Shown here: positions 53 to 11,733 of the stretch, in pieces
Layout: each line of letters begins with the position of its first letter
How positions within the stretch are numbered: the stretch's first letter is position 1
Source of the DNA: a virus
IMG/VR virus record: IMGVR_UViG_3300045988_021489
Strand: one strand, 5' to 3'
DNA: 11,733 nucleotides
Notes under the pieces: model-generated
Seen by the model: only the letters and a program-made list of their open reading frames with translations
Told to the model about the DNA's origin: nothing
Databases searched by the model: none
Program-made: the position numbers and the translations under genes

Positions 53-95
53 AAAGGTACGCTACTGACCCCTATTTAACGTTTCCCAACGCACT

Positions 96-211
96 TTTAA
101 CATTTGCAAACACTTTGTGGCACGCTTTTTGCTATGGGTCGCAATTACCAAAATTTAACACATTGCGCCCGACTTTGGCACGGTTTTTGTTATGCGTGTG
201 CGCCCGTGAAA
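96..211. repeat. Two degenerate tandem units of about 58 bp inside the ITR
   Basis: Unit A starts at 96 (TTTAACATTTGCAAACACTTTGTGGCACGCTTTTTGCTATGGGTCGC...). Unit B starts at 154 (TTTAACACATTGCGCCCGACTTTGGCACGGTTTTTGTTATGCGTGTGCGC...). Shared blocks are TTTAACA, ACTTTG, GCACG, TTTTTG and TATG. A further TTTAAC lies at 74. The same structure is mirrored in the right ITR. Confidence 0.7.
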
Positions 212-271
212 TTGTTTCACGTGGAACACTGCCACACCGATGCACAAAATAAATTGTTTCACGTGGAACAC
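209..271. repeat. Two perfect 21-bp direct repeats (AAATTGTTTCACGTGGAACAC) with a CACGTG-centred imperfect palindrome; likely protein-binding sites
   Basis: Copies lie at 209-229 and 251-271, 42 bp start to start (about 4 helical turns). Each contains GTTTCACGTGGAAC, a 14-bp palindrome with one mismatched pair. Mirror copies lie at 11463-11483 and 11505-11525. Confidence 0.9.
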
Positions 272-281
272 AACTGTTAAA

Positions 282-289
282 CAAAGTTA
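282..289 (-). promoter_or_regulatory. Outward-facing TAACTTTG box (Bacteroidota -7-like) just inside the left ITR border
   Basis: Plus strand caaagtta reads TAACTTTG on the minus strand. It points toward the terminus, and the final G is 7 nt from the ITR boundary. TTTG lies 16 nt upstream on the minus strand, which is shorter than consensus spacing. Confidence 0.35.
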
Positions 290-347
290 AAAGAATAATT
301 TAACACAAAATAACACGCCAACCGCTTGCACGTTCAAAACAAATGCT

Positions 348-355
348 TAACTTTG
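348..355 (+). promoter_or_regulatory. Candidate Bacteroidota-type promoter -7 box (TAACTTTG) for the left-end gene
   Basis: TAACTTTG lies 31 nt upstream of the ATG at 387. A cTTG at 324-327 sits 20 nt upstream of the TA, which fits -33 TTTG / -7 TAnnTTTG spacing. Confidence 0.55.
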
Positions 356-386
356 CAGCAAGTTAAACAATTAAATACATTGAGTT

Positions 387-749
387 ATGAATAACGTAAA
401 ATCATTAAGCGAAAACATCGCAAAGGCTGTTAGCGAAACAACAAAGCACGTAGAATTTTTGGCGGGTGCTTATCCCGAAATCCGTACCAACTTGCAAACT
501 ATTGCAGAAACTTTGCAAGTAGTACACCATTCGTTAGGTACGGTTTGTGAATTGTCCGAAATGCAAGAAAAGGTACACAAACAAACCGTGTCAAATTTTG
601 AGGTTGAAAAGGCTTGCAAAAATCAAGCATACGACTTTATACTAACTGAAAGGCTGTTCAATCGTTTCAAAACCTTTTGTTCGTGTTATCCCGTAAGCAC
701 ATACAACGAAAAAACGGGTGCTGACATTCTTGCAAAGCACGTGAAATAA
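387..749 (+). CDS. Hypothetical protein, 120 aa (only plus-strand gene; left-end, inward-facing)
   Basis: ATG-initiated ORF ending in TAA. It is preceded by a promoter-like box and followed by a hairpin terminator. I recognise no motif. Confidence 0.7.
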   Translation: MNNVKSLSENIAKAVSETTKHVEFLAGAYPEIRTNLQTIAETLQVVHHSLGTVCELSEMQEKVHKQTVSNFEVEKACKNQAYDFILTERLFNRFKTFCSCYPVSTYNEKTGADILAKHVK

Positions 750-761
750 CAAGCAAGGCAC

Positions 762-802
762 AAAGAAAAGGCGGTAACAATCAAGTTGCCGCCTTTCTTT
801 TT
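762..802. terminator. Bidirectional rho-independent terminator between convergent genes
   Basis: Stem GGCGGTAAC (770-778) pairs with GTTGCCGCC (785-793), 9 bp with one G-U pair, loop AATCAA. It is flanked by AAAGAAAA on the left and TTTCTTTTT on the right, so it can work on either strand. Confidence 0.8.
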
Positions 803-816
803 ATCCTGCCTTGCAG

Positions 817-1965
817 TTACTCAATATATACCCCGTCAGACAAAGCCGTGTATATCATTTCTTGTTCCTCTGTCAGCATTTCGGCGGTGTGTATGGGTGT
901 AACATCATCGAACACATTAAACCCTCTGAAATCGCCTAAAATGCCCGTTTGTCGGTCGTTATTACGTCCGTTGCTTGCGCTCTCGTACCACTTGCAATAA
1001 ATGTAAGGTTCTAAACCGTAATATAACATTTCGTTCCAATCATCGCCGCCCACGGTCTTAACTTGGGTACTTGGTGAAAGGTATATTATTTCGCTGCTTG
1101 GTTCTGTTTCCTCAACTTGAAATACAACGCCGTTGCAGGACAAAAGCGCAACCCCGTTGCCCGTTACCACGTTTATAACGTACTGCAAACCTATCGTTTT
1201 GCCTGCATAATCGGTATTGAGGTTTACAAACCCTGCAAACGGCAAAAAGATTTGTATTTCGCTTTCGTAGTCGGTGTTGTCCTCATTGTGCGCTGGTACT
1301 ACCGCCGTGCCGAAATCAAGCGTTATTTTGTCTTGCGCTGGCTGGTGGCAAGATACGCCCGTATTGTAGTTGCCGCATCGTATTACATCGGTGCTGCTTG
1401 CCCCTATGTTGGTGTAAACACGGAGTATCTTGTTCACGTATGCGCCCAAATCTATGTTTTCGTATATAGGTGCGCCCGTGCTGGGGTCTGTTCCCGTTTC
1501 CTTGAAAAACCGTTTGCCGCTAAACTCTGCCAACTCATCAAGCGTTACCAAATATACGTTTATTGCGCCGTACTGCTCGCCCACAACGGTAACGGGGTAC
1601 GCACTGCCAATAACTGCAAAATCGCTCCAATTAGTGTTTACTTGTATGCTTCCCGTTGCCTTCTTTTTATCGCTTGAAATCGTAAGGTCTTGCGTTTGAG
1701 GGAAGCCGCTTGCGTTCTGGTAATAGAATTGCGGTGTACTTTGTTCGGTGTCAAATTCTGTGCCATCGTTTGCCGTTAATGTAACATTTACCGTTTCCCC
1801 GTCTTTCACATATTGCGGCAAATCCTCGTTAGCGGTGCAATTTGATAGGTTTGTAGAAATTTCTAACACATCATCGTAACTACCCGTAAGCGTTACGGGC
1901 TTTGTCGGGTCTATGTCGGTAATGGTTAGCGTTGCTTGTTGGCTGTATTCCAAATCCTGCACCAC
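817..1965 (-). CDS. Tail knob (phi29 gp9-like), C-terminal segment preceded by an Ig-like repeat domain. Has no ATG start and is in frame with the upstream ORF across one TAA
   Basis: 382-codon ORF whose only candidate starts are GTG GTG at 1965-1960; the first internal Met is about codon 320. The C-terminal block FNVFDD...LTEEQEMIYTALSDGVYIE resembles the phi29 gp9 C-terminus (FNYVQT...DLQEIRTIFDNGITLW) as I recall it. The central FLPFAGFVNLN...GKTIGLQYVINVVTG block is typical of tail knob/tube proteins. Confidence 0.6.
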   Translation of the reverse strand: MVQDLEYSQQATLTITDIDPTKPVTLTGSYDDVLEISTNLSNCTANEDLPQYVKDGETVNVTLTANDGTEFDTEQSTPQFYYQNASGFPQTQDLTISSDKKKATGSIQVNTNWSDFAVIGSAYPVTVVGEQYGAINVYLVTLDELAEFSGKRFFKETGTDPSTGAPIYENIDLGAYVNKILRVYTNIGASSTDVIRCGNYNTGVSCHQPAQDKITLDFGTAVVPAHNEDNTDYESEIQIFLPFAGFVNLNTDYAGKTIGLQYVINVVTGNGVALLSCNGVVFQVEETEPSSEIIYLSPSTQVKTVGGDDWNEMLYYGLEPYIYCKWYESASNGRNNDRQTGILGDFRGFNVFDDVTPIHTAEMLTEEQEMIYTALSDGVYIE

Positions 1966-2010
1966 AAACGGCGTTTTGGTCGCTGTTCCTGCCTTGTTCG
2001 TGTAACTCGC

Positions 2011-2670
2011 TTAGAGGTCAAAGAAACGCACTTTGTTCGGGGTGTATTGCCCCGTAACGGTGAAAGTTGCCGTTTCCCCGTCAAACGTATGTTGTTCGGT
2101 TACGCCGCTGCCCGTTATGTTGTTCGTTACGTTAAGTTCGGGTGTTCCCTCGCTGGCTGTCGTACCCGTAAGCGTGAAACTCTCGCCCGTGTCGGCATCG
2201 TCATACTCCCAACTTGCCGTTTTACCGTCTGGCGAAATTGTCAAGTCCTGCGTATCGGGGTAGCCGTAACTGTCCGTAAACTCCACTTGCGCCGCCGTTA
2301 TCTTGTAACCCTCGTTTGCCGTTACTTGTATGCTCGCATCATAATAACCGCTACCTTTTGTTCCCGTTGCTGTCGTGTTCGGTATGTTGTTTATAACTTC
2401 CAAATCGTTTTCGCTTCGGGTGTTTCCCGTGATAGTTATTTCCGTGTCTGCATCGGTGTCGGACAACTCACCAAATGCCCAAACCTTTGCGCCGTTCATA
2501 TCCAAAACAACGCTTTTCGGGTATCCGCTTGTATTGGTATAAACCGCCTTAACATCGCCTACAAACAAATAACCGTCATTCGTTCTTACGTTTATATCCC
2601 AATAACCGCCGCTTGCGTTCCACTGGCTGTTATCATCGTGTGCGTTAGGTATATTTACAATTACTGCCAT
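2011..2670 (-). CDS. Tail protein segment with Ig-like/beta-sandwich repeat domains (possible receptor-binding insertion)
   Basis: 219-aa ORF with an ATG start, in the same frame as both neighbours. It contains SYGYPDTQDLTISPDGKTA, paralogous to ASGFPQTQDLTISSDKKKA in the next ORF. T/G/E-rich beta-strand-like repeats (VTANEGYKIT, FTLTGTT, FTVTGQ). Confidence 0.55.
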   Translation of the reverse strand: MAVIVNIPNAHDDNSQWNASGGYWDINVRTNDGYLFVGDVKAVYTNTSGYPKSVVLDMNGAKVWAFGELSDTDADTEITITGNTRSENDLEVINNIPNTTATGTKGSGYYDASIQVTANEGYKITAAQVEFTDSYGYPDTQDLTISPDGKTASWEYDDADTGESFTLTGTTASEGTPELNVTNNITGSGVTEQHTFDGETATFTVTGQYTPNKVRFFDL

Positions 2671-2676
2671 ACTCTT

Positions 2677-3129
2677 TTAATTTTCGGTTGTTCCTTTCAA
2701 AGTTACCATAATGATACCCCCGTTTTCATTCAAAAGCCCCGTTTCAGAAAACGGCACTTTCTCAAAATTCGGGGTGCGCTTGTAAACCGTATCACGGTTT
2801 GAAATATACGGGTCGGGGTTGTCGCTTTCAGATACACGCCCAGTTGCCTCCAAAATTTCGCTTTCGTAGGTTTTAAGCACATCAATACGCAATGCAAGTT
2901 CGTAGGCGTTGTTTCCCTCAAAACTTACCCTATCCACGAAATAATAACGCCCTAAATCGGGTATGTAACAATAATTGAAAGTCGGTCGGGGTTGCTTTCG
3001 TAGTGTTACGGTCGGGCGCAACACATCGAAAGTTTGCCGCAAATCGCCCTCAATCGCCGTAAACGTGCCTAACTGCTTGTTTACCGTGTTCGGGTGTCCG
3101 TTGTATGAATAAAAGTTTATCGTTGTCAT
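2677..3129 (-). CDS. Tail knob (phi29 gp9-like), N-terminal domain segment, 150 aa
   Basis: I place the start at ATG 3129 (MTTINFYSY). The ORF-track GTG at 3177 lies inside the terminator hairpin. The block NYCYIPDLGRYYFVDRVSFEGNNAYELALRIDVLKTY resembles the phi29 gp9 N-terminus ([42 protein letters not shown]) as I recall it. Confidence 0.6.
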   Translation of the reverse strand: MTTINFYSYNGHPNTVNKQLGTFTAIEGDLRQTFDVLRPTVTLRKQPRPTFNYCYIPDLGRYYFVDRVSFEGNNAYELALRIDVLKTYESEILEATGRVSESDNPDPYISNRDTVYKRTPNFEKVPFSETGLLNENGGIIMVTLKGTTEN

Positions 3130-3138
3130 ATCGGAAAG

Positions 3139-3181
3139 AAAAAAGGCGGTGCGGTGCGCTTTCACCTGCACCCACACCGCC
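3139..3181 (-). terminator. Rho-independent terminator/attenuator downstream of the capsid gene
   Basis: Minus strand reads GGCGGTGTGGGTGC-AGGTGAAAGC-GCACCGCACCGCC followed by TTTTTT. The stem is about 13 bp with one bulge and one G-U pair. It lies between the MCP stop (3211) and the tail gene start (3129). Confidence 0.8.
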
Positions 3182-3189
3182 CAAAGTTA
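3182..3189 (-). promoter_or_regulatory. TAACTTTG box immediately abutting the hairpin (function unclear)
   Basis: Minus strand reads GTTTAACTTTG, then the hairpin begins. The same box-plus-hairpin arrangement recurs at 10432-10465. Confidence 0.3.
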
Positions 3190-3210
3190 AACAATCTAAT
3201 ACCTATTGAG

Positions 3211-4443
3211 TTACTCAATAAAGAATACTACAAAGTTTTCGTTTGTATCGTTGAAATACCCTGCATCAAACTTGTAATAGTTGTTGAAAAACTCTGCCTT
3301 TGCGTTGTAGTTCGTTGTTACCCGTCTGTCAAGATTGCAAACGCCCAACGCATCACGGTCGAACATTACGCCCAACACGCCCGTAATTTCAACATCTTTG
3401 CCGCCGCTTTCCTTAACCTTAATGTGTCCCGTGCTGGCGAAATCGTAGTTCTTTCCGCTGCCTTGCCAAAAAGGTACGGTTTCGGCTTGCGGCAAAAGCA
3501 CATCGCCACGGTTGAACGTGTCGGAATAAAGATAGGTTTGCGCTGCCTTTGCAAAGTCGGACAAAAGTACAACGTGTAACATATCTTTCGGCGTAAACCG
3601 TTCCTTGCCGCCAACATTGAACACGGTGGAAATGCTTTGCAGGCGGTCGGCATACGTCCCCATAACGTAAGACGCAAAGCGGATAAAATCGGGGTCGGTT
3701 ATCGCCTTTGCCGCTGTCAGTGCGTCAGGGTTCGGGGTCGGCTCGCCCTCTCCCGTTGCAGGTGTTGCAGGGAAATACTTGTCATTGTACAACTTCAAAA
3801 GGTTTACACAACGTGCCGTGCTTGCGCTGGAAAGGTCTGCCCCTGCCATATCACCTGCTGCCGTTGCTCCAAACGCTTGCGCATCAGCCAACACGGTTTC
3901 CGCAATCATGTTGTTAATTGTGCGCATAATCAAAGCGTCTGCCTTGATAGTCATTGACTTTTCAACGGCTGCATAAATCATCGAAATAAAGCCGTTGAGT
4001 TGTGCGGCGTTGCTGAAACTTTCCTTAACCTGTCTTTCGGTGATTGATACGGGCACTTCAAACGTAACCTTTGAGTTGAAAAACTTTGCGGTAACGGTCG
4101 GTTTGTGGAACACATCTTGCTTGTATTCTGTTCCGTCCTTCAAATCCCACGTGTCGTTTTCTTCTGCTTCTGGAACATCGGCACTTATCTTTTCCAATAC
4201 GCTACCAAACTCCCACGCATCCATTAAAACGCTCGGCACTTTGCCCGCATAAGGTCGGTTTACGAAAATCACCTTGCCGATATGGTTTACAAGTGATTTT
4301 ACGTAGTTGTCAACTGCATTTTGGTTAAACACTTCCGTGCCCAAATCCACAATGCCCGTTAAATCGTCCTGCACAATGTCAGTCTTGCCCAGCACTTCAC
4401 TTGAAACGCTGTTAATAATCTGGTAAATCTGTTTTACGTTCAT
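3211..4443 (-). CDS. Major capsid protein (HK97-fold type expected), 410 aa
   Basis: It is the largest head-module ORF and lies downstream of the portal and a scaffold-like ORF. It is followed by TAA..TAG..TAA and a strong terminator, an arrangement typical of abundant capsid genes. The N-terminal pattern (IYQIINSVSSEVLGKTDIV...LTGIVDLGTEVF...) resembles small-podovirus MCPs from memory. This is not verified by search. Confidence 0.75.
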   Translation of the reverse strand: MNVKQIYQIINSVSSEVLGKTDIVQDDLTGIVDLGTEVFNQNAVDNYVKSLVNHIGKVIFVNRPYAGKVPSVLMDAWEFGSVLEKISADVPEAEENDTWDLKDGTEYKQDVFHKPTVTAKFFNSKVTFEVPVSITERQVKESFSNAAQLNGFISMIYAAVEKSMTIKADALIMRTINNMIAETVLADAQAFGATAAGDMAGADLSSASTARCVNLLKLYNDKYFPATPATGEGEPTPNPDALTAAKAITDPDFIRFASYVMGTYADRLQSISTVFNVGGKERFTPKDMLHVVLLSDFAKAAQTYLYSDTFNRGDVLLPQAETVPFWQGSGKNYDFASTGHIKVKESGGKDVEITGVLGVMFDRDALGVCNLDRRVTTNYNAKAEFFNNYYKFDAGYFNDTNENFVVFFIE

Positions 4444-4464
4444 ATTGCTAAAAATTAAAATTAG

Positions 4465-5037
4465 TTATTCGTAAATACTCGTTGTTAATTCTCTTACAAG
4501 TGCAAAGATAATGTTTTTTCTCCAATTATCACGCCTTAACTGCAATTCTTTTGCAATTTCACTTGAAATTGATTTGCTTGCGCCCGTTCCTTTGCTGGTT
4601 TCGGTTGTTTGGCGTTCCTCGGTGCGGTTTCTCTCATCGTTTGCGGTCTTTCGGTCGCTGTCTGAAAAATCGGTATCGTTAAACGCCTTGTTTGCGCCCG
4701 TTTCGGTGTTGTCCGTGCTTTCCTGCAAAGTAACCGTTTCCGTGCGTTCAATTTGCCCCGTTACGGGTGTCAGTACATCGTAATCGGCTAACATCGCCGC
4801 CGCTTCACGTTCCCAACCTTGCACGTTTACCGCAATCACCGCCGAAACAACATCTTTTGCGTTGTCCGCATTGATAGAGTTTACAACGGTCTTGCCGCCG
4901 TACATCAGTAAGGCGTAAGCGTCTAACTTGGTCGGGTCGGTATCGCCGAAAATAGCGGCGTACTCTGTCGGATATTCAGTCTTGAAAACGGTTGCGAATA
5001 TCCCGTTACCCGTTGTAAATAGTTCGCTGTATTTCAT
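4465..5037 (-). CDS. Hypothetical head-assembly protein, 190 aa (position suggests scaffolding protein)
   Basis: It lies between the portal and MCP genes, with its ATG overlapping the portal TGA (ATGA). The C-terminal half is charged with T/E/R-rich low complexity. I recognise no motif. Confidence 0.35.
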   Translation of the reverse strand: MKYSELFTTGNGIFATVFKTEYPTEYAAIFGDTDPTKLDAYALLMYGGKTVVNSINADNAKDVVSAVIAVNVQGWEREAAAMLADYDVLTPVTGQIERTETVTLQESTDNTETGANKAFNDTDFSDSDRKTANDERNRTEERQTTETSKGTGASKSISSEIAKELQLRRDNWRKNIIFALVRELTTSIYE

Positions 5038-6125
5038 TGCTTATCGTCTTTTGTTTCTGTTTCCTCTGTTTCCTCTGTTTCCTCTGTTTCGGTATCGTTA
5101 CCGTCCGTTTCCGTTTCCGTTTCTTTCGTTTCTTCTGTTTCCTCTGTTTCCGTGTCGTTTCCGTCTGTTTCGGTGTCGTTTCCGTCTGTTTCGGTTGTTT
5201 CCTCTGTCGGGTCGGGTTCGTCTGTCGGGTCGGGGTTTTCCTTTGCCGTTTCCAAATCAGCCGCCAAAGCGTTGTAATTATCCCTTTCCAAACCCCAACT
5301 TGAAGCAAGTTTAACCGAAATTTCGGTGTCAAACATCGCATTAATTTTCTCAACTGCATTTTGTCTTTCTTTTAGCATATTATCCACATACGGCAAAAGT
5401 ACATCTACATTCATACTTACCTCGCCCAAATTAAGGCGTTCACGCTTCATATTATAATTTGCGTTTAGCCCCAATTCGTTGTACATACTCGCTTTGTAGT
5501 ATTGTATCAGTTCAATAAGTTGTGTTATATACACGCTGTTTGTGGTCGGGGCTGTCTGCATATTTACGCCTTTGAAAAAAGCGTTTTCCCCGATAATTGA
5601 AAACTCGCCGTCTTGTATCTTGCGCAAAATCTCATCGGCACTCTGTTTCGTCTTGTCATCGCTGGCACTTATCAGCATTGTAATACGGGTCAAAATGCTT
5701 GCCGTGTTCAACGAAATAAGCCCGTCAGTATGCAAGACGGCATAACGCCCGATAAGCGGCAAAAGGCTTTCGCCGTTGCTGTCATTCTCAATCAAAACCC
5801 CGTCTTTCTGTATATCGTAGGTTTTGTTTAACTTTAATGCAGGGTTCGCCACGGTGTAAAGCGTTGCCCGTCCGTAAACATCGGGTTCGCCGCCTTTGCC
5901 GCCCGAAAGCGCATACAAAACCCCGTCCACGCTGGTAACAAAGGCGTTGCCCGTGGTCTGCAAAAGCCGCTCCAATTCCTTTTGCGGTATGCTGTCGGGC
6001 AAACCCTCATATTCAAACATACTTTGAGTTTTCGCCAACGTGTTCGCCATAAATTCGGTTACGGCGGTGTCTTTGTCCCTTACTTGTTGCTGGTACAACT
6101 TGTAAATGTTATCTTTCCTTTTCAT
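5034..6125 (-). CDS. Portal (connector) protein, phi29 gp10-like, with a roughly 70-aa acidic repeat tail
   Basis: FEYEGLPDSIP and NANYNMKRERLNLGEV resemble phi29 gp10 FEWENLPPTI and NANLEKKERMVTDEV as I recall them. Size and position fit a portal. Confidence 0.85.
   Translation of the reverse strand: MKRKDNIYKLYQQQVRDKDTAVTEFMANTLAKTQSMFEYEGLPDSIPQKELERLLQTTGNAFVTSVDGVLYALSGGKGGEPDVYGRATLYTVANPALKLNKTYDIQKDGVLIENDSNGESLLPLIGRYAVLHTDGLISLNTASILTRITMLISASDDKTKQSADEILRKIQDGEFSIIGENAFFKGVNMQTAPTTNSVYITQLIELIQYYKASMYNELGLNANYNMKRERLNLGEVSMNVDVLLPYVDNMLKERQNAVEKINAMFDTEISVKLASSWGLERDNYNALAADLETAKENPDPTDEPDPTEETTETDGNDTETDGNDTETEETEETKETETETDGNDTETEETEETEETETKDDKQ
5050..5240 (-). repeat. Tandem short repeats encoding the T/E/D-rich portal C-terminus
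   Basis: A perfect 21-bp tandem duplication lies at 5152-5172 and 5173-5193 (encodes TETDGND), with a diverged copy near 5091-5111. A 9-bp unit ctctgtttc repeats 3-4 times at about 5063-5090, and tctgtcgggtcggg occurs twice at about 5204-5236. Confidence 0.9.
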
Positions 6126-6315
6126 CTGTCAAAACTTTAATAAGCGTTGTAAGTTCGGCTAACACTTTCGTATTTTCCGCAATCGTGTCTTTTAGGTGTT
6201 CCGTTTCTTCTTGGTGCGCCTGCCTTTGTTTCACCATATACCAAAACAATGCGCCACACATCACAATCGGAAAACCCAAACTTGAAATGATTTGAATAAT
6301 AGTATTTGCGTCCAT
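6109..6315 (-). CDS. Small single-pass membrane protein, 68 aa (holin-like / YvrJ-like)
   Basis: The N-terminus IIQIISSLGFPIVMCGALFWYMV forms one hydrophobic helix, followed by a charged coiled-coil-like tail. It overlaps the portal start by 17 nt. The family assignment is from memory only. Confidence 0.45.
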   Translation of the reverse strand: MDANTIIQIISSLGFPIVMCGALFWYMVKQRQAHQEETEHLKDTIAENTKVLAELTTLIKVLTDEKER

Positions 6316-6340
6316 ATCAATAAATTTTTAGTTCCTATTG

Positions 6341-6348
6341 CAAAGGTA
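6341..6348 (-). promoter_or_regulatory. Candidate Bacteroidota-type -7 box (TACCTTTG) for the structural/late operon
   Basis: Plus strand caaaggta reads TACCTTTG on the minus strand, 25 nt upstream of the ATG at 6315 and just downstream of a terminator-like hairpin. Confidence 0.5.
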
Positions 6349-6362
6349 GTTATTTATTTCGT

Positions 6363-6399
6363 AAAACGGTCGGTTCGGCACGAAATTTGCACCAAACCG
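6363..6399 (-). terminator. Terminator-like hairpin after the packaging ATPase gene
   Basis: Minus strand reads CGGTTTGGTGC-AAATTTC-GTGCCGAACCG (11-bp stem including three G-U pairs), followed by ACCGTTTTAC. Confidence 0.5.
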
Positions 6400-6409
6400 C
6401 CCGTTATTT

Positions 6410-7540
6410 TCATTTAAGCGAAACAATGTTTGTCTTTGCGCTCGTAATTAAATAATTGCGTACTATTTCGCCTATTTCGTTATCTTGGTAGAAAACTTTG
6501 TCTATTGCGAAAAACCGTGCGACTTGTTGTTCCACGTAACTTGCCGTGCTTAACAACTTGCGTTTGTAGTTCGGTTTGCCGTTCATTTCCAAAGAATAAA
6601 TAAGGCTGTTTTCCTCATCTTTAATCGGTGTCGTTTTGGCGTGTATGTACGTGAAACATTCGTTGCCTACTTGTATAATGTTACCCTGCAAAACAACATC
6701 GTTAAACTTGATATAGTACACAAACAACACGTCTTGCGGCTTGTACTTACACGGCAAATGCGGATATACTGCAAGTTCCCACTTGCCGCCCGTAATCATC
6801 TGCAAATTTTGATTGTCGAAACAAAAATACTTGTTACTGGCTTTGTGTTGTACTATCGTGCTGCAATACTCCACCGCCACGATTGCGCCGTGTTCGCCAA
6901 AGCGGTATATATCTATCGTTCCCTGCTCCATAAACGGCACTTGCTTCAAACCCATTTCCGTAAAGTACGGGCAAAACTTGTTTACCGTGTTGCCCAACAT
7001 AAACACTTTGACATCGTTTCGCTGGCGTATTATCGTGCTTAACAAGTTCATAAATAACATAAACTCATCGGGCAAATAATACCGCCGTGTCAGAAACTCG
7101 TCAAATACTATCGTTGTAACATTCGGGTAACTGCTGCTTTTTTCGTGTTCCTGCTCTGAAAGGCAAAACCCGTAACAAAACGGGGTCGGGTCGGGTGTCC
7201 GCTTGTTTTTCTCTGCATCGTAGTAAGATAAAAACCACTTGTTCGACATATAGAACACTTCATTAAATTTGCCCTCTGTCAGTTCCTCAATAAGTCCGTT
7301 TGCCACGTGATTTGCAAACAGACTTTCGGCACGTTTGCCCCGTAAATCCTCACGCCAACGGCGTATATATGCCATTTGCTTGCCCGTCTTGATATAGTTT
7401 TCCAAACCATATTTTAAGGCGGCGTAAGTCTTGCCGTTTGACCGTTCGCCAAATATAACATTATAGTCGGCGTTCTTGCTTAAAATCGCTTTCAAGTCGT
7501 AAAATTTCGGCTTTTCTGTCTTTGTCTTTCTTGTTGTCAT
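6410..7540 (-). CDS. DNA packaging (encapsidation) ATPase, phi29 gp16-type
   Basis: Walker A is FGERSNGKTY. The Walker B block SSSYPNVTTIVFDEF closely matches phi29 gp16 SNAYPNVSTIVFDEF as I recall it. Also YIRRW vs YVRRY, and ML-GN-T-V vs CLSNAVSV. Confidence 0.93.
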   Translation of the reverse strand: MTTRKTKTEKPKFYDLKAILSKNADYNVIFGERSNGKTYAALKYGLENYIKTGKQMAYIRRWREDLRGKRAESLFANHVANGLIEELTEGKFNEVFYMSNKWFLSYYDAEKNKRTPDPTPFCYGFCLSEQEHEKSSSYPNVTTIVFDEFLTRRYYLPDEFMLFMNLLSTIIRQRNDVKVFMLGNTVNKFCPYFTEMGLKQVPFMEQGTIDIYRFGEHGAIVAVEYCSTIVQHKASNKYFCFDNQNLQMITGGKWELAVYPHLPCKYKPQDVLFVYYIKFNDVVLQGNIIQVGNECFTYIHAKTTPIKDEENSLIYSLEMNGKPNYKRKLLSTASYVEQQVARFFAIDKVFYQDNEIGEIVRNYLITSAKTNIVSLK

Positions 7541-7552
7541 ACTCTTATTATT

Positions 7553-9382
7553 TTAGTCCTTAAATTTAATTCCACGCAAATAATTTATGTACATAACCGA
7601 AAGGGAAAGGCTGTATCCGGTCGGCTCTAAATGTACGCCCGTGCGTTCGTTGTAATGCGCCGTGCTGCCTTTGTAGTCGGTTATTTCGCCTTGTATCTCG
7701 TAGTCTATGTACGTATGTATGTTTTTGCCCGTTGCTTGCGGCGGTATATCCAAATAGTTGGTAAACGCATCAAAGATACCGTTTTCGCCGTACTTTTCAA
7801 TAAGATACGGTATCGCCGCCTTTTTGTTCACTCCCGACACGGTTAAACTGAAATCGTATGCCCGTCCGCCTGCTTTTAGTGCGTTGGGTTCTTGCACCAT
7901 ATAGCGTTTAGCCCCCAAAGTCTTAAACCTTGTATATGTACCCTCGAAATCCCAAACGCCCAAAGTCTTTGTTATGCCTTTTATCGTTTGCGGCTCGCAA
8001 AGCGAAAACGGCAAACCGTGGTACTTGCAGGCTGCACGTAATTTCATTTGCACCTGCATATTATAAGCCTTGAAATACGCTTCGTGCGCTTTGCCGTTCA
8101 TTATTTTAATGCTGTCGGTGTCGCTGTATATGTAATCGTCTTTCGCTTCGTGTATGCCCGTGAAAAGGTTGCGCCGTGCGTATGCGGTTACGAAAATGCC
8201 CCACGGGTAAAACAAGAAACGGTTTTTGCTGGTGTTGTACTTGTATAAAAGTTCCTGCTTTTGTTCGGCTGTCATTGAGTTAATATCCCATTCGCCGTTA
8301 TATGTAAACTCATCACGCAAAGGGTTGGTAACACTCATACCGTAACAACTGTTTAACATTTCCTTGCTGTTAAGATATTCCACTTCTTTGCCCTCAACTC
8401 CTTTTAATTTCGTCTTGCTTTCGTACAAATGAAGGATAGATTTTACAAACGGGGTCGGCAAATAGTCTTTCTTGTAACAATACATTTCACCCACACGCAT
8501 ACTTTCCCACGTATAAAAGTTTTTGATTATATTAAAATCCACGTCCGTAATTGTCAGCGCAATTTTTGAAGCCGCCACAATACGCCCGTTATTTTCGCAC
8601 GGGTTTTCTTTCACAAAACATTTGCTTGCGCTTATCGGGTTGTCTTGCGTTTCGCTGGCAAATATGTTGGTAAACTCAATATCAAACACGCAACAATACT
8701 TTGATATTAAAAACTCAAATTGCGCCATACTCTTAACCGTGATTGCAACGCCTTGCGACATCGGGTATTTTTCCGCTATCATTACATACGGGTAACTGCT
8801 TGTAAAGTCGTAACTATCCACGTTGTACATTATTTCGTCTGTATATTCGGCGATGGCGTGTGTAAAACCGCCTGCAAACGCACGTTGCAGCATATTAAAT
8901 TCATTCATACCCGTAATTTGTAATTCCTGCATCAAGTTCACGTAATCCCAATTTGGTACGGTCTTTCCTGCATCGCTTTTTTCACGCAAACAATGCGCAC
9001 GGCAATACTTGCGCACAAACCCCGTCTTTGTTATCGGTATGTGCGTTATCCCCTTGCTTTCCTCTATACGTTCCTGTATGTAGCACATCACTACTTTAAT
9101 ATCGTTTATGCAATAGTGTATTTCCGCATCAGTAAGCGGCGTTTCGCTGTGCCTTATTTGCTGGTAGTCCAAATCGCCAACGGCTTTTGCACACTTGTAT
9201 TTCATAAGTTGTTCGCCCAACTTTGCAAGCGAATAACCCGAAAGCAAGTAACTGCATCTAAACTCAATGTTGCCCGTTGTTATTGCGTAAATCGGTTTGC
9301 GCAAATCAATACTGAAAACCCGTTGCCACTCAAACCACTTGCGCAAAAACTGAAATTCGTATGAAAGGTTATGCACATACAC
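7553..9382 (-). CDS. Family-B protein-primed DNA polymerase, C-terminal 609 codons (ExoII to the end). No ATG start; in frame with 9395-9763 across one TAA
   Basis: ExoII is YVHNLSYEFQFL and ExoIII is HYCINDIKVV. Motif A is YDFTSSYPYV, motif B is KEMLNSCYGMS, motif C is IYSDTDSIKI, and the KxY motif is GAKRYMV. The ORF-track start is GTG. Confidence 0.95.
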   Translation of the reverse strand: MYVHNLSYEFQFLRKWFEWQRVFSIDLRKPIYAITTGNIEFRCSYLLSGYSLAKLGEQLMKYKCAKAVGDLDYQQIRHSETPLTDAEIHYCINDIKVVMCYIQERIEESKGITHIPITKTGFVRKYCRAHCLREKSDAGKTVPNWDYVNLMQELQITGMNEFNMLQRAFAGGFTHAIAEYTDEIMYNVDSYDFTSSYPYVMIAEKYPMSQGVAITVKSMAQFEFLISKYCCVFDIEFTNIFASETQDNPISASKCFVKENPCENNGRIVAASKIALTITDVDFNIIKNFYTWESMRVGEMYCYKKDYLPTPFVKSILHLYESKTKLKGVEGKEVEYLNSKEMLNSCYGMSVTNPLRDEFTYNGEWDINSMTAEQKQELLYKYNTSKNRFLFYPWGIFVTAYARRNLFTGIHEAKDDYIYSDTDSIKIMNGKAHEAYFKAYNMQVQMKLRAACKYHGLPFSLCEPQTIKGITKTLGVWDFEGTYTRFKTLGAKRYMVQEPNALKAGGRAYDFSLTVSGVNKKAAIPYLIEKYGENGIFDAFTNYLDIPPQATGKNIHTYIDYEIQGEITDYKGSTAHYNERTGVHLEPTGYSLSLSVMYINYLRGIKFKD

Positions 9383-9394
9383 AATAAGGCGTAA

Positions 9395-9763
9395 TTAGTC
9401 ATTCAGCCCTAAAACCTCGCTTACGGTCTGCATCATCGTGACAAACTCGCCCCACGTGCGCCCCATTATCGTATATCCGTTTATGCCAAACTGCCAAACG
9501 TACATTATTGCGGCTTTCTCTAATTTCGCCTTGCGCCCGTTCCCGTCCTGCATACGCTGCATTTGCTCGTATGTGTACGCCCGTCCGTCCGTATCACGGT
9601 AAAAACTTGTTGTTTCAATATCAAAGGCGCACGGGATATTGTAAAACCTTTCGCCCTTGCTGTTTCCGATAATGTTCTTTTCGTTTACGGCACGTTGCAA
9701 CACGCTTGCAATTTCGGTCGGGCTGTTTATTCTTTCTTGTAACTCAAAAGGTATTTTTTTCAT
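9395..9763 (-). CDS. Family-B protein-primed DNA polymerase, N-terminal 122 codons (ExoI only)
   Basis: The ExoI motif is CAFDIETTS (D48, E50). The ATG overlaps the upstream TGA (ATGA). It ends ...SEVLGLND-TAA, immediately followed in frame by LRLIVYVHNL. Confidence 0.9.
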   Translation of the reverse strand: MKKIPFELQERINSPTEIASVLQRAVNEKNIIGNSKGERFYNIPCAFDIETTSFYRDTDGRAYTYEQMQRMQDGNGRKAKLEKAAIMYVWQFGINGYTIMGRTWGEFVTMMQTVSEVLGLND

Positions 9764-10413
9764 AACCCAAACTTATTAAAGTTGCGCAATATCCGTTCTA
9801 TATCGTTTTGCATATCCTCCATTTGGTCGGCTACTTCATTTGCCTGCCTTTCTATTTCCGCATCAATCGCCCGTGATATGCTTTGCGCTTCACTTTCTAT
9901 TTGGGTGCTTATATCGCTTGCGCTTTGCTCCATTTCGCCCGTGAAATCTTTGTACCGCATCAAATAACGCTCCACGAAATCACTATCCGAAACGCTGTTT
10001 AACTTGCCTTGCAAGTTCCTTGCCATTAAATTGTACTCATCGGGCGTTAAATCGTACATACGTTGCAGGTGTTGCCCGTACTGCCTTGCACCTTGCGCCG
10101 TACTTGTCGGCTGGCGTAAAAACGAAATCGCCTTGCCGTACTCAATTTTTAGGGTGTTCCAATCGCCTTTCATTGAAAACTTGGTAAACCCTTTTACATC
10201 GCCTTTGTTTAACGCTTGCACGGCTGGCGAAAGTTGTCCGCTTTGCTCTATATTCTGTATTCGGCGGTTCGCCATTTGGAAAACCCTTGCAATCTCTTTT
10301 CTATATTCGGGGCTGCTTTCCACGGCTTGCAATATCTCTTTTTTGATTTTCGCCCGTTGGGTTGCTCCAAATACAGACTTTGTAAATTTAATCTTGAAAC
10401 CTAACTTTGCCAT
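9760..10413 (-). CDS. Candidate terminal protein (protein primer), 217 aa
   Basis: It lies immediately upstream of the polymerase and is translationally coupled to it, as phi29 gene 3 is to gene 2. It has a basic N-terminus (MAKLGFKIKFTK...RAKIKK) and an acidic, Ser-rich C-terminal region (EMEQSASDISTQIESEAQSIS...). I recognise no sequence motif. Confidence 0.5.
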   Translation of the reverse strand: MAKLGFKIKFTKSVFGATQRAKIKKEILQAVESSPEYRKEIARVFQMANRRIQNIEQSGQLSPAVQALNKGDVKGFTKFSMKGDWNTLKIEYGKAISFLRQPTSTAQGARQYGQHLQRMYDLTPDEYNLMARNLQGKLNSVSDSDFVERYLMRYKDFTGEMEQSASDISTQIESEAQSISRAIDAEIERQANEVADQMEDMQNDIERILRNFNKFGL

Positions 10414-10431
10414 AACGGTATTATATTAAAT

Positions 10432-10456
10432 AGGGGTTGCAAACATTGCAACCCCT
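10432..10456 (-). terminator. Perfect 10-bp-stem hairpin in the intergenic region (terminator or 5'-UTR structure)
   Basis: Minus strand reads AGGGGTTGCA-ATGTT-TGCAACCCCT followed by ATTTAATATAAT. It sits between the 118-aa gene's stop and the ATG at 10413. Confidence 0.55.
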
Positions 10457-10457
10457 A

Positions 10458-10465
10458 CAAAGTTA
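10458..10465 (-). promoter_or_regulatory. TAACTTTG box (Bacteroidota -7-like) upstream of the TP-polymerase-ATPase genes
   Basis: Minus strand reads GTTTAACTTTG one nt before the hairpin. The final G is 44 nt upstream of the ATG at 10413. Confidence 0.45.
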
Positions 10466-10484
10466 AACATAACTTTCCAAACTC

Positions 10485-10841
10485 TTACAAGTCCACAAAC
10501 GAAATAGAATAACACTTCTTGCCGTGGCTCTCGTACTCGTAAATCGTGTACCCGACTTTGCCGTCTTTGATAGTTTGTACCGCCTCATCATCGGCAAGTA
10601 TTTCACGCACCGTTTCGGCGGTGTGGCTTGGCAGGTTCACCAGCCGTTTGTTTTCCTCATCAATAATTACGGGGCTGTCGCCTAATTGCGACTTGTGGAC
10701 ATAAAGCCCATTGATTTTGTGTACCACATCTTTGCCGCCCTCATTTTCAGAGTTGAAAATATCGGTTAACTTGGTGTACTGAAAATCGGTTGTGTCAATG
10801 CCAAACGTGGTCTTGTTAAATTTACTTGCAAAACTTTTCAT
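10485..10841 (-). CDS. Hypothetical early protein, 118 aa (candidate ssDNA- or dsDNA-binding replication accessory protein, by position only)
   Basis: ATG ORF ending in TAA, located in the replication module upstream of TP and pol, where phi29 has genes 5 and 6. The function is not supported by any motif I can name. Confidence 0.6.
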   Translation of the reverse strand: MKSFASKFNKTTFGIDTTDFQYTKLTDIFNSENEGGKDVVHKINGLYVHKSQLGDSPVIIDEENKRLVNLPSHTAETVREILADDEAVQTIKDGKVGYTIYEYESHGKKCYSISFVDL

Positions 10842-10869
10842 TGTAGTAATTCTTTTAATTGTTAAACTT
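10842..10869 (-). promoter_or_regulatory. Conserved intergenic cassette copy 1 (AAGTTTAACAATTAAAAGAATTACTACA-ATG)
   Basis: Near-identical to 11094-11120 (17-nt and 8-nt identical blocks flanking a 3-nt vs 2-nt variable spacer). It ends exactly at the start codon. Confidence 0.6.
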
Positions 10870-10880
10870 GGTGTTAATTG

Positions 10881-11093
10881 TTATTCGGCTGTCTGTCCTT
10901 GCGGTTCGCCGTCAAACGGCAAATTTGGATCGGGGTTGGCTTGCGGCTTCAAGTCCATAAGCCACGCACGAAAGCGGTTTATTTTCATAACTGCCCGTTG
11001 GTTGCGGCATACTTCATTACACGCCATAAGGCTACCCAAAGCCGACAAAGCGGCAAACGAAAACTCGTCAAATGCGTTTCTTTTTTCTTCCAT
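10881..11093 (-). CDS. Hypothetical early protein, 70 aa
   Basis: ATG ORF ending in TAA, preceded by the conserved cassette. No motif recognised. Confidence 0.55.
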   Translation of the reverse strand: MEEKRNAFDEFSFAALSALGSLMACNEVCRNQRAVMKINRFRAWLMDLKPQANPDPNLPFDGEPQGQTAE

Positions 11094-11120
11094 TGTAGTA
11101 AACTTTTAATTGTTAAACTT
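11094..11120 (-). promoter_or_regulatory. Conserved intergenic cassette copy 2 (AAGTTTAACAATTAAAAGTTTACTACA-ATG)
   Basis: See 10842-10869. A related plus-strand version, CAAGTTAAACAATTAAATAC, precedes the ATG at 387. Confidence 0.6.
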
Positions 11121-11124
11121 ATTG

Positions 11125-11355
11125 TTATTTTGTTTTTGGAAACTTCACCGTACCGCCGTGGTAGATATACGTTGTATCGGTTGTTATTATCACTGCTTTG
11201 CCGCTGCTTGCGCTTTCACGTTGTACGCTGCAACCCTGCAAGATTGCAGATAGAAACAACATCGCACCGCAAACGGCAAAAATCATTACACACATTGCAA
11301 CTTCTTTAATTGCTTCTTTCGGTTGCTCTTTGAAATGCTTTATTAACTCTTTCAT
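11125..11355 (-). CDS. Small membrane protein / possible lipoprotein, 76 aa (first gene of the right-end operon)
   Basis: A hydrophobic stretch MCVMIFAVCGAMLFLSAIL is followed by QGC (lipobox-like L-Q-G-C), then a short soluble tail. The charged N-terminal 20 aa are atypical for a signal peptide. Confidence 0.55.
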   Translation of the reverse strand: MKELIKHFKEQPKEAIKEVAMCVMIFAVCGAMLFLSAILQGCSVQRESASSGKAVIITTDTTYIYHGGTVKFPKTK

Positions 11356-11382
11356 ATTTCAACTTGTTTAAGTAACACGTTG

Positions 11383-11390
11383 CAAAGATA
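11383..11390 (-). promoter_or_regulatory. Candidate Bacteroidota-type -7 box (TATCTTTG) for the right-end early operon
   Basis: Plus strand caaagata reads TATCTTTG on the minus strand, 27 nt upstream of the ATG at 11355. Several TTTG/TTG elements lie upstream, but none has ideal spacing. Confidence 0.5.
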
Positions 11391-11459
11391 CAACTTTTTT
11401 CAAACATACAAGCATAAGCGCACAAATTATTTTCGTTTTAACTTTTCTTAACTCTTGGT

Positions 11460-11681
11460 GTTGTGTTCCACGTGAAACAATTTATTTTGTGCATCGGTGT
11501 GGCAGTGTTCCACGTGAAACAATTTCACGGGCGCACACGCATAACAAAAACCGTGCCAAAGTCGGGCGCAATGTGTTAAATTTTGGTAATTGCGACCCAT
11601 AGCAAAAAGCGTGCCACAAAGTGTTTGCAAATGTTAAAAGTGCGTTGGGAAACGTTAAATAGGGGTCAGTAGCGTACCTTT
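11460..11681. repeat. Right inverted terminal repeat, 222 bp
   Basis: Exact reverse complement of 53-274, abutting the adapter at 11682. Confidence 0.97.
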
Positions 11682-11733
11682 AGATCGGAAGAGCGGTTCA
11701 GCAGGAATGCCGAGACCGATATCGTATGCCGTC
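11682..11733. other. Illumina adapter sequence (artefact), reverse complement of 1-52
   Basis: Reads AGATCGGAAGAGCGGTTCAGCAGGAATGCCGAGACCGATATCGTATGCCGTC. Confidence 0.9.

Follow-up and report, generated by a model that had tools for sequence, protein, structure and literature searches.

The stretch studied here is the IMG/VR virus record IMGVR_UViG_3300045988_021489, 11,733 nt in full (the window), and our subject is its TAnnTTTG boxes, its translation starts and its host. We suggest that positions 53-11681 are very probably the complete linear genome, about 11.6 kb long, of a protein-primed phi29-type podovirus of human-gut Prevotella, with promoters of the sigma-ABfr type and translation that proceeds without Shine-Dalgarno (SD) sequences. 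A preceding model reading of the letters alone (the sequence-only reading) had called it a phi29-like phage, and this is correct: Pfam recognises the capsid, the connector, the gp16 ATPase and DNA_pol_B_2, and the genome has inverted terminal repeats (ITRs). The features are collected in Table 1. The minus strand holds all genes except the one at 387-749. The polymerase translation shows the ExoI (FDIETTS) and ExoII (HNLSYE) motifs, and directly upstream of its gene, in the same position as in Salmonella phage Astrid, lies an open reading frame (ORF) of 217 aa (9760-10413), the putative terminal protein gene. The two ends of the window, 1-52 and 11682-11733, are presumably the Illumina paired-end adapter. 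Since an adapter adjoins the genome at either end, the contig captures its true termini, which start AAAGGTACGC.

No SD sequence precedes any of the 14 start codons, as the sequence-only reading had held. The best duplex with the anti-SD in positions -20 to -3 has a mean of -0.8 kcal/mol, and 0 of the 14 starts reach the threshold of -4.5 kcal/mol. The cultured relatives differ in this respect, with means of -6.3 kcal/mol in Astrid (12/15 starts with an SD), -7.1 in Acinetobacter phage Phanie (9/13) and -4.1 in Vibrio phage K58g2 (7/13). SD-independent translation is usual in Bacteroidota.

The six TAnnTTTG boxes that had been listed between genes are all present at their coordinates and on their strands, while the numbers set against them have to be revised. 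The window holds 26 boxes, and dinucleotide shuffles give 14.8 +/- 3.9 rather than the five to six estimated at that time. The non-coding DNA, adapters excluded, amounts to 1,127 nt and not to roughly 0.6 kb; shuffles of the non-coding segments yield 2.05 +/- 1.41 boxes, so that the former expectation of 0.3 was about seven-fold too low. Seven non-coding boxes are observed (P = 0.006), namely the six listed ones and 11401-11408 on the minus strand. The position of the boxes relative to the genes is a stronger test than this enrichment. A box on the same strand ends 15-65 nt before the start of 7 of the 14 genes, against 1.16 expected, and 0 of 20,000 random placements reached seven. This count takes in two boxes, 4503-4510 before the capsid gene and 2698-2705 before the tail gene, which had been missed because both lie inside the last codons of the preceding gene. 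A scan with the sigma-70 consensus found no site of at least 10/12 in a non-coding position facing a gene, and none convincing before the genes.

The idea that all six listed boxes are promoters stands for 11383-11390, 6341-6348 and 348-355, which are predicted promoters with good support, and is doubtful for those at 3182, 10458 and 282. The box of the holin-like gene at 6341 is the most widely conserved example: a box 17-32 nt before the ATG of this gene is found in 8/8 SD-less relatives and in 0/7 SD-using ones. It persists even though the flanking sequence can no longer be aligned and the protein retains only 42-57% identity in diverged members of the clade, and four diverged genomes (L091, L092, L112 and L117) have TTG or TTTG exactly 20 nt upstream of it. 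The block of the box at 11383 is kept in 72 relatives while the leader varies. An element of the -33 type, TTTG or TTG about 17-21 nt upstream, is seen here (TTG, N18, at 11409-11411) and at 348 (TTG, N19). The diverged relatives L091, L092 and L112 have an equivalent terminal early promoter, in the first two of the form TTTG-N20-TATCTTTGCAccgtgtt. The neighbouring box 11401-11408 is probably a part of the upstream region of the 11383 promoter, and the host tRNA-Gln promoters have the same ATGTTTG stretch. In the plus-strand box at 348, the TA and TTTG are kept in 69 relatives and the two n positions vary. The box 4503-4510, limited to close relatives, is a likely additional capsid promoter. 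We also note that a CA(A/C)CGTGTT stretch after the box of the early promoter is common to the phage, L091 and L092.

Three of these boxes resemble promoters of the host itself. When the whole phage was searched against the family to which a Prevotella metagenome-assembled genome (MAG) belongs (401 genomes), many matches of 25-45 nt centred on three phage boxes appeared; none was present in 399 Clostridia genomes. The phage segment 11374-11411 (minus strand, TTGTATGTTTGAAAAAAGTTGTATCTTTGCAACGTGTT) is identical at 27/27 and 30/31 positions to sequence ending about 20 nt before Bacteroidaceae tRNA-Gln(CTG) genes, and, in another genome, at 26/26 to the beginning of a short transcript that ends in a terminator. 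The region of the capsid box (4486-4529) matches at 29/32 positions a stretch conserved in six Bacteroidaceae genomes, in one of them upstream of a Dps-like gene, and that of the plus-strand box (334-368) matches at 30/32 the upstream region of an rpsA-like gene of the Prevotella genus. With at most one mismatch, GTTGTATCTTTGCA has 9 sites in the two Prevotella genomes that bear spacers against the phage, whereas its reversed control has 2. Most of these nine sites are closely followed by an ORF or by tRNA genes, among which are HU-like, tRNA-Ser/Glu, DEAD-box helicase-like and valyl-tRNA-synthetase-like genes. A further observation on the host side concerns AAAAAGTTGTATCTTTGCAACGTGTT in two Bacteroidaceae genomes (L141 and L155), which shares 26 identical nucleotides with the phage early promoter and is followed by a hairpin and a T-run within about 50-65 nt; this locus looks like a small conserved RNA gene.

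Evidence on the host also comes from spacers of clustered regularly interspaced short palindromic repeats (CRISPR). The searches took in about 550 genomes of Bacteroidaceae and 399 of Clostridia, and for each genome two candidates were scored. In the family search, three matches of about 30 nt fell within 400 bp of one chromosome and proved to be a CRISPR array of Prevotella sp. CAG:755 (OZ006989.1, a chromosome assembly of 2.67 Mb), with a 47-nt repeat and spacers of 29-30 nt, of the Cas9 type. Four of its approximately 25 spacers match the phage lineage, three of them the window itself. All four protospacers are followed on the 3' side, in the sense of the CRISPR RNA (crRNA), by NNNCCC (TGCCCC, TATCCC, GACCCC and TATCCC), the pattern that real Cas9 acquisitions would be expected to show. 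A search of all 148 genomes of that Prevotella genus added a second array, in the uncultured human-gut Prevotella MGYG-HGUT-00658, which brings the total to five spacers in two Prevotella species. The 399 Clostridia genomes gave no spacer-like match and no match to the promoter regions, only mis-binned phage contigs and low-complexity matches. The Bacteroidota host proposed by the sequence-only reading, together with a comparison of Bacteroidota spacers as its check, is thus supported by the spacers in these two human-gut genomes, by the host-promoter identity, by the Clostridia control and by the SD-less, box-bearing clade described below.

As a separate observation, both 47-nt repeats (L131/L157 in CAG:755, L159/L181 in MGYG-HGUT-00658) hold a TAnnTTTG box of their own, TACCTTTG or TATCTTTG, on the crRNA-sense strand and pointing at the next spacer. 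Type II-C arrays are known for repeat-internal crRNA promoters, and by analogy the repeat boxes would fit such a function.

The nearest cultured relatives by capsid (53-58% identity) are phages of 10.4-11.9 kb that infect Salmonella, Shigella, Pectobacterium, Enterobacter, Acinetobacter and Vibrio, and the gene order is the same as in Astrid and Phanie. The earlier host list for such phages (Firmicutes, Mycoplasma and Actinomyces) is outdated, since the closest cultured relatives are phages of Gammaproteobacteria. In IMG/VR we find 338 related stretches, of which the best 80 have 91-98% capsid identity and come mostly from one dataset. In a tree of 38 capsid sequences, a single clade (support 99/94) unites the genomes whose SD fraction is 0.00-0.13, except for L107, a fragment with 5 called genes. 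The starts throughout this clade likewise lack complementarity to the anti-SD, and in most of its members boxes precede genes. The SD-using genomes among which it is nested include the cultured Gammaproteobacteria phages, and in the cultured relatives 0-1 genes have a TAnnTTTG box upstream.

Hence, we propose the following mechanism. Since no RNA polymerase gene was found in the annotation of the 11.6-kb genome, the host polymerase would transcribe it, with the primary sigma factor of Bacteroidota (sigma-ABfr) recognising TAnnTTTG at -7. The -7 boxes would often take the form gTAnCTTTGCA, with TTG or TTTG 18-20 nt upstream. The main promoters would be those at 11383-11390 for the early genes, 6341-6348 for the block of holin, portal and capsid, 348-355 on the plus strand and probably 4503-4510 for the capsid. 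The hairpins at 10430-10458, 3144-3182 and 767-796 would probably bound the transcription units, and translation would start without SD pairing on A/T-rich leaders of 20-60 nt. What the sequences show is the motif itself with its enrichment, position and conservation, the match to host promoters, the lack of SD sequences and the spacer link to Prevotella; the firing of the boxes in vivo, the transcript starts and the operon boundaries we infer.

Several points weigh against this picture. The non-coding enrichment taken alone is modest, and 19 boxes lie inside genes, 15 of these on the sense strand. The -33 element at 18-20 nt is present in only two of the four best promoters of the window, being absent at 6341 and 4503. 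The boxes at 3182 and 10458 adjoin hairpins and are not conserved beyond close relatives. The box 282-289 points into the left ITR with no ORF downstream, so that it is the one listed box for which the claim of correct orientation fails. Finally, the spacers show exposure of Prevotella to the phage DNA, not productive infection.

These points bear most on the alternative that only some of the boxes are promoters, while the GTTTAACTTTG boxes 3182-3189 and 10458-10465 (perhaps also 282-289 and 2698-2705) represent another lineage-specific element or chance; we give it about even chances. Under this alternative, the working element at 3182 and 10458 would be the adjacent terminator or processing hairpin. 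Strong hairpins indeed directly follow both boxes, and the diverged SD-less relatives keep a hairpin at the 10458 position and a hairpin with a T-run at the 3182 position, with the box at neither. About two boxes are expected in the non-coding DNA by chance. The box 2698-2705 is lost in relative L089. For 282, no packaging RNA (pRNA) was found by Rfam in the window, and the ITR transcript shows no significant fold. Nevertheless, the identical 8-mer TAACTTTG at 282, 348, 2698, 3182 and 10458 is more than chance suggests, and more than 60 close relatives retain these boxes, though their genomes are more than 90% identical throughout. A promoter starting inside the 5' arm of a terminator would permit re-initiation past it, and therefore promoter and terminator functions need not exclude each other. 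We regard the boxes at 3182, 10458, 2698, 282 and 11401 as uncertain promoters. A pRNA analogue driven by the 282 box was considered and is unsupported: the fold of 135-280 on the minus strand is not better than that of shuffles (z -1.26).

It is highly improbable that the host is another SD-poor gut lineage, for example Gastranaerophilales (Melainabacteria), or belongs to the Firmicutes of related MAG bins. Whole related contigs do occur in MAGs labelled Scatosoma, Melainabacteria, Christensenellaceae and Tissierella, yet these contigs are the entire phage of about 11 kb, binned by coverage and composition, and the same clade also occurs in a Prevotella MAG. No spacer was found in the 399 Clostridia genomes (classes and phyla beyond Clostridia and Bacteroidaceae were not searched), and to our knowledge TAnnTTTG with TTG at -33 is specific to Bacteroidota. 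We reject the derivation of a host from bin labels, given that whole phage contigs sit in bins of Prevotella, of the four groups just named and of others; scattered as they are over MAGs of many phyla, the labels are uninformative about the host rather than contrary. A gammaproteobacterial host, with the boxes as chance products of A/T-rich non-coding DNA, is suggested by the closest cultured capsid relatives and by the chance estimate that had been set too low, and has a practically negligible probability, as the gammaproteobacterial relatives have an SD at 54-80% of starts and 0-1 genes with a box against an SD at none here, the spacers and promoter matches point to Prevotella and Bacteroidaceae, and no sigma-70 consensus site precedes any gene.

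Table 1. Features of the window, ordered by position (promoter assignments are predictions).
Feature	Position	Strand	Remarks
Adapter artefact	1-52, mirrored at 11682-11733		part of the 274-nt perfect terminal inverted match
Left ITR, 222 bp	53-274, mirrored at 11460-11681		perfect inverted match up to position 274
Box TAACTTTG	282-289	-	faces outward into left ITR
-7 box TAACTTTG	348-355	+	TTG 19 nt upstream; ends 31 nt before ATG of gene 387-749
Hairpin terminator	767-796	+	between convergent genes 387-749 (+) and 817-2670 (-); -24.1 kcal/mol, z -5.5
Tail gene	817-2670	-	synteny with Astrid ORF010; interrupted by TAA at 2011-2013
Protospacer, MGYG-HGUT-00658	1587-1616	+	30/30; second array, from genus search
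Box TAACTTTG	2698-2705	-	in last codons of 150-aa gene; 27 nt before tail-gene ATG at 2670
Box TAACTTTG (3182-3189) fused to capsid-operon terminator	3138-3189	-	hairpin 3144-3182 (-28.8 kcal/mol, z -3.8) and U6 tract 3138-3143
Major capsid protein (Phi29_MCP)	3211-4443	-	Pfam PF25622, E 3.9e-56
-7 box TATCTTTG	4503-4510	-	in 3' end of 190-aa gene; 59 nt before capsid ATG
Portal / upper collar connector	5034-6125	-	Pfam PF05352, E 6e-15 (6.4e-15)
68-aa holin-like membrane protein	6109-6315	-	phrog_4898 holin, E 1e-10
-7 box TACCTTTG, promoter of holin-like gene/portal/190-aa protein/capsid operon	6341-6348	-	ends 25 nt before ATG at 6315
gp16-type DNA packaging ATPase	6410-7540	-	Pfam PF05894, E 2.8e-24
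Protospacer, CAG:755	7188-7217	-	28/29; 3' flank GACCCC
Family B DNA polymerase, protein-primed type	7553-9763	-	Pfam DNA_pol_B_2 PF03175, E 1.4e-11
Protospacer, CAG:755	8167-8196	+	30/30; 3' flank TGCCCC
Protospacer, CAG:755	8254-8283	+	96% over 28 nt in genome search, 25/25 (local) in blastn-short; 3' flank TATCCC
Box TAACTTTG (10458-10465) fused to 13-bp hairpin	10430-10465	-	hairpin 10430-10458 (centroid about -20.4 kcal/mol, z -4.7); between small early genes and 217-aa gene
-7 box TATCTTTG, right-end early promoter	11383-11390	-	ends 27 nt before ATG of 76-aa gene
Second box TATGTTTG	11401-11408	-	inside spacer of 11383 promoter

Among known systems, the Astrithrvirus-like phages (astrithr, Astrid and assan of Salmonella, DU_PP_III of Pectobacterium, Phanie of Acinetobacter and K58 g2 of Vibrio) are the closest in design: they too are linear, about 11-12 kb long and bounded by ITRs, and they share the order of small early genes, putative terminal protein, PolB, gp16 ATPase, small membrane protein, connector, capsid and tail genes. 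They differ in their gammaproteobacterial hosts, in their clear SD sequences and in having no TAnnTTTG boxes before genes. Unlike in these phages, no recognisable CHAP or amidase endolysin gene follows the tail genes here, and the ITR measures 222 bp versus 83 bp in Astrid. ICTV (International Committee on Taxonomy of Viruses) practice sets the genus Astrithrvirus at about 70% nucleotide similarity across the genome; megablast matched the genome to no record of the phage collection and the capsid identity is 57%, which places the phage outside this genus. Bacillus phage phi29 (Salasmaviridae) has the same capsid, connector, gp16 ATPase and protein-primed PolB, as well as the reliance on the host RNA polymerase. 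Its genome measures 19 kb and has an ITR of 6 bp, its promoters are of the sigma-A type, its genes are SD-led and it has a pRNA, whereas the present phage has 222-bp ITRs, no detectable pRNA, almost all genes on one strand and a Gram-negative host. An Rfam search of the window at E <= 1 gave neither a pRNA nor any other RNA family, only a chance miRNA match, and a pRNA is not universal outside Salasmaviridae.

The sigma-ABfr promoters of Bacteroides and Flavobacterium, reportedly described by Bayley in 2000, Vingadassalom in 2005 and Chen in 2007, are said to consist of TAnnTTTG at -7 and TTTG or TTG at -33. The phage boxes have the same -7 motif, TTG 18-19 nt upstream at two of them, and ends 25-60 nt before the starts; they differ from these host promoters in being carried on a protein-primed phage genome and, in several cases, in having no -33 element. 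The Astrithrvirus-like phages have been reviewed as phi29-like phages of Gram-negative bacteria, and the same review suggests a Bacteroidales host for the faecal phi29-like genome 2692_55609 of "cluster 30" (Evseev 2024, PMC11476376). The latter genome, about 12 kb with 42.5% GC (guanine plus cytosine) and from human faeces, is phi29-like as well, but belongs to another capsid cluster, related by its authors to Amedibacillus phages (PMC11476376). Its host is based on protein similarity, and that of the present phage on CRISPR spacers and promoter identity.

That phi29-like phages reach Gram-negative and probably Bacteroidales hosts is thus already published (PMC11476376), and our host extension is sound but only moderately new, with expression signals of a kind ordinary in Bacteroidota. 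Two things are new: a large gut clade now has a firm Prevotella host, and the expression signals switch cleanly in a single clade; in the literature as far as searched, we found no description of this clade or its host. These are among the smallest phages with a tail, and their large clade, until now without a host, receives one with CRISPR backing. One compact phage design spans Gammaproteobacteria, Bacteroidota and a large set of SD-using relatives, with its transcription and translation signals fully swapped to suit the host, and so the absence of SD sequences combined with TAnnTTTG boxes could be a cheap host marker for such contigs, useful where binning assigns them to many wrong phyla. 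A phage of 11 kb that depends on the host polymerase and has short promoters could also serve as a genetic tool or model for Prevotella, which are hard to manipulate. Tentatively, and with the odds rather against it, one may imagine that a single protein-primed lineage of about 11 kb crossed once from SD-using hosts (Proteobacteria or Firmicutes) into Bacteroidota, replacing every ribosome-binding site and promoter and keeping its gene order and its replication and packaging machinery. The strongest early promoter might then be a copy of a host tRNA-Gln promoter (27/27 nt) rather than a product of convergence, and the lineage, with its 338 IMG/VR stretches, would now be among the small tailed phages recovered most often from the human gut.

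Among the 14 start codons proposed by the sequence-only reading, the GTGs at 9382 and 1965 are not real starts, because each follows a private in-frame TAA that is a sense codon in the relatives, and for the GTG at 3177 the ATG at 3129 is the better choice. The first of these stops, at 9395-9397 inside the polymerase gene, is a sense codon in 76/76 relatives (AAA in 75, AAG in one), and the second, at 2011-2013 inside the tail gene, is AAA in 25/25 alignable relatives. Both TAA codons result from the same A-to-T change, so that the genome is either a defective variant or carries two errors. A recoding of TAA is ruled out by the sense codons of the relatives at both sites, and the other TAA stops that were checked are ordinary and conserved.

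Each ITR holds two copies of the near-palindrome GTTTCACGTGGAAC, at 214-227, 256-269, 11465-11478 and 11507-11520; counted by strand, this gives 8 matches where 0.02 are expected. A similar motif, GTTTCACGTGAAAC or GTTTCACGTAAAAC, is found in several intergenic regions of the diverged relatives L112 and L117, including the -33 position of the holin-gene promoter. The motif is a candidate operator for a DNA-binding protein of the phage or of the host.

A PHROG search of the nine remaining ORFs gave no match, the 68-aa holin-like ORF being the sole one with a PHROG match; the 217-aa ORF likewise had none, and the Pfam scan took in ten other proteins. The coding repeat of the portal C-terminus (an acidic Thr/Glu/Asp tail, 5034-5260) has low-complexity DNA matches in many unrelated bacterial genomes, which are for this reason to be ignored in spacer screening. 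Whole contigs of this phage family, about 11 kb each (L089-L120), turn up in MAGs from at least six phyla, with Melainabacteria, Omnitrophota and Bifidobacteriaceae among the labels; in this way small high-coverage phages systematically contaminate public MAGs.

Last, two small early genes with ATGs at 10841 and 11093 have a near-identical leader, AAGTTTAACAATTAAAAG(a/t)(a/t)TTACTACA-ATG (10842-10880 and 11094-11124), with no TAnnTTTG box, and the plus-strand gene has the related leader sequence AGTTAAACAATTAAATAC. The leader common to the small early genes may be a shared translation-initiation or regulatory leader.

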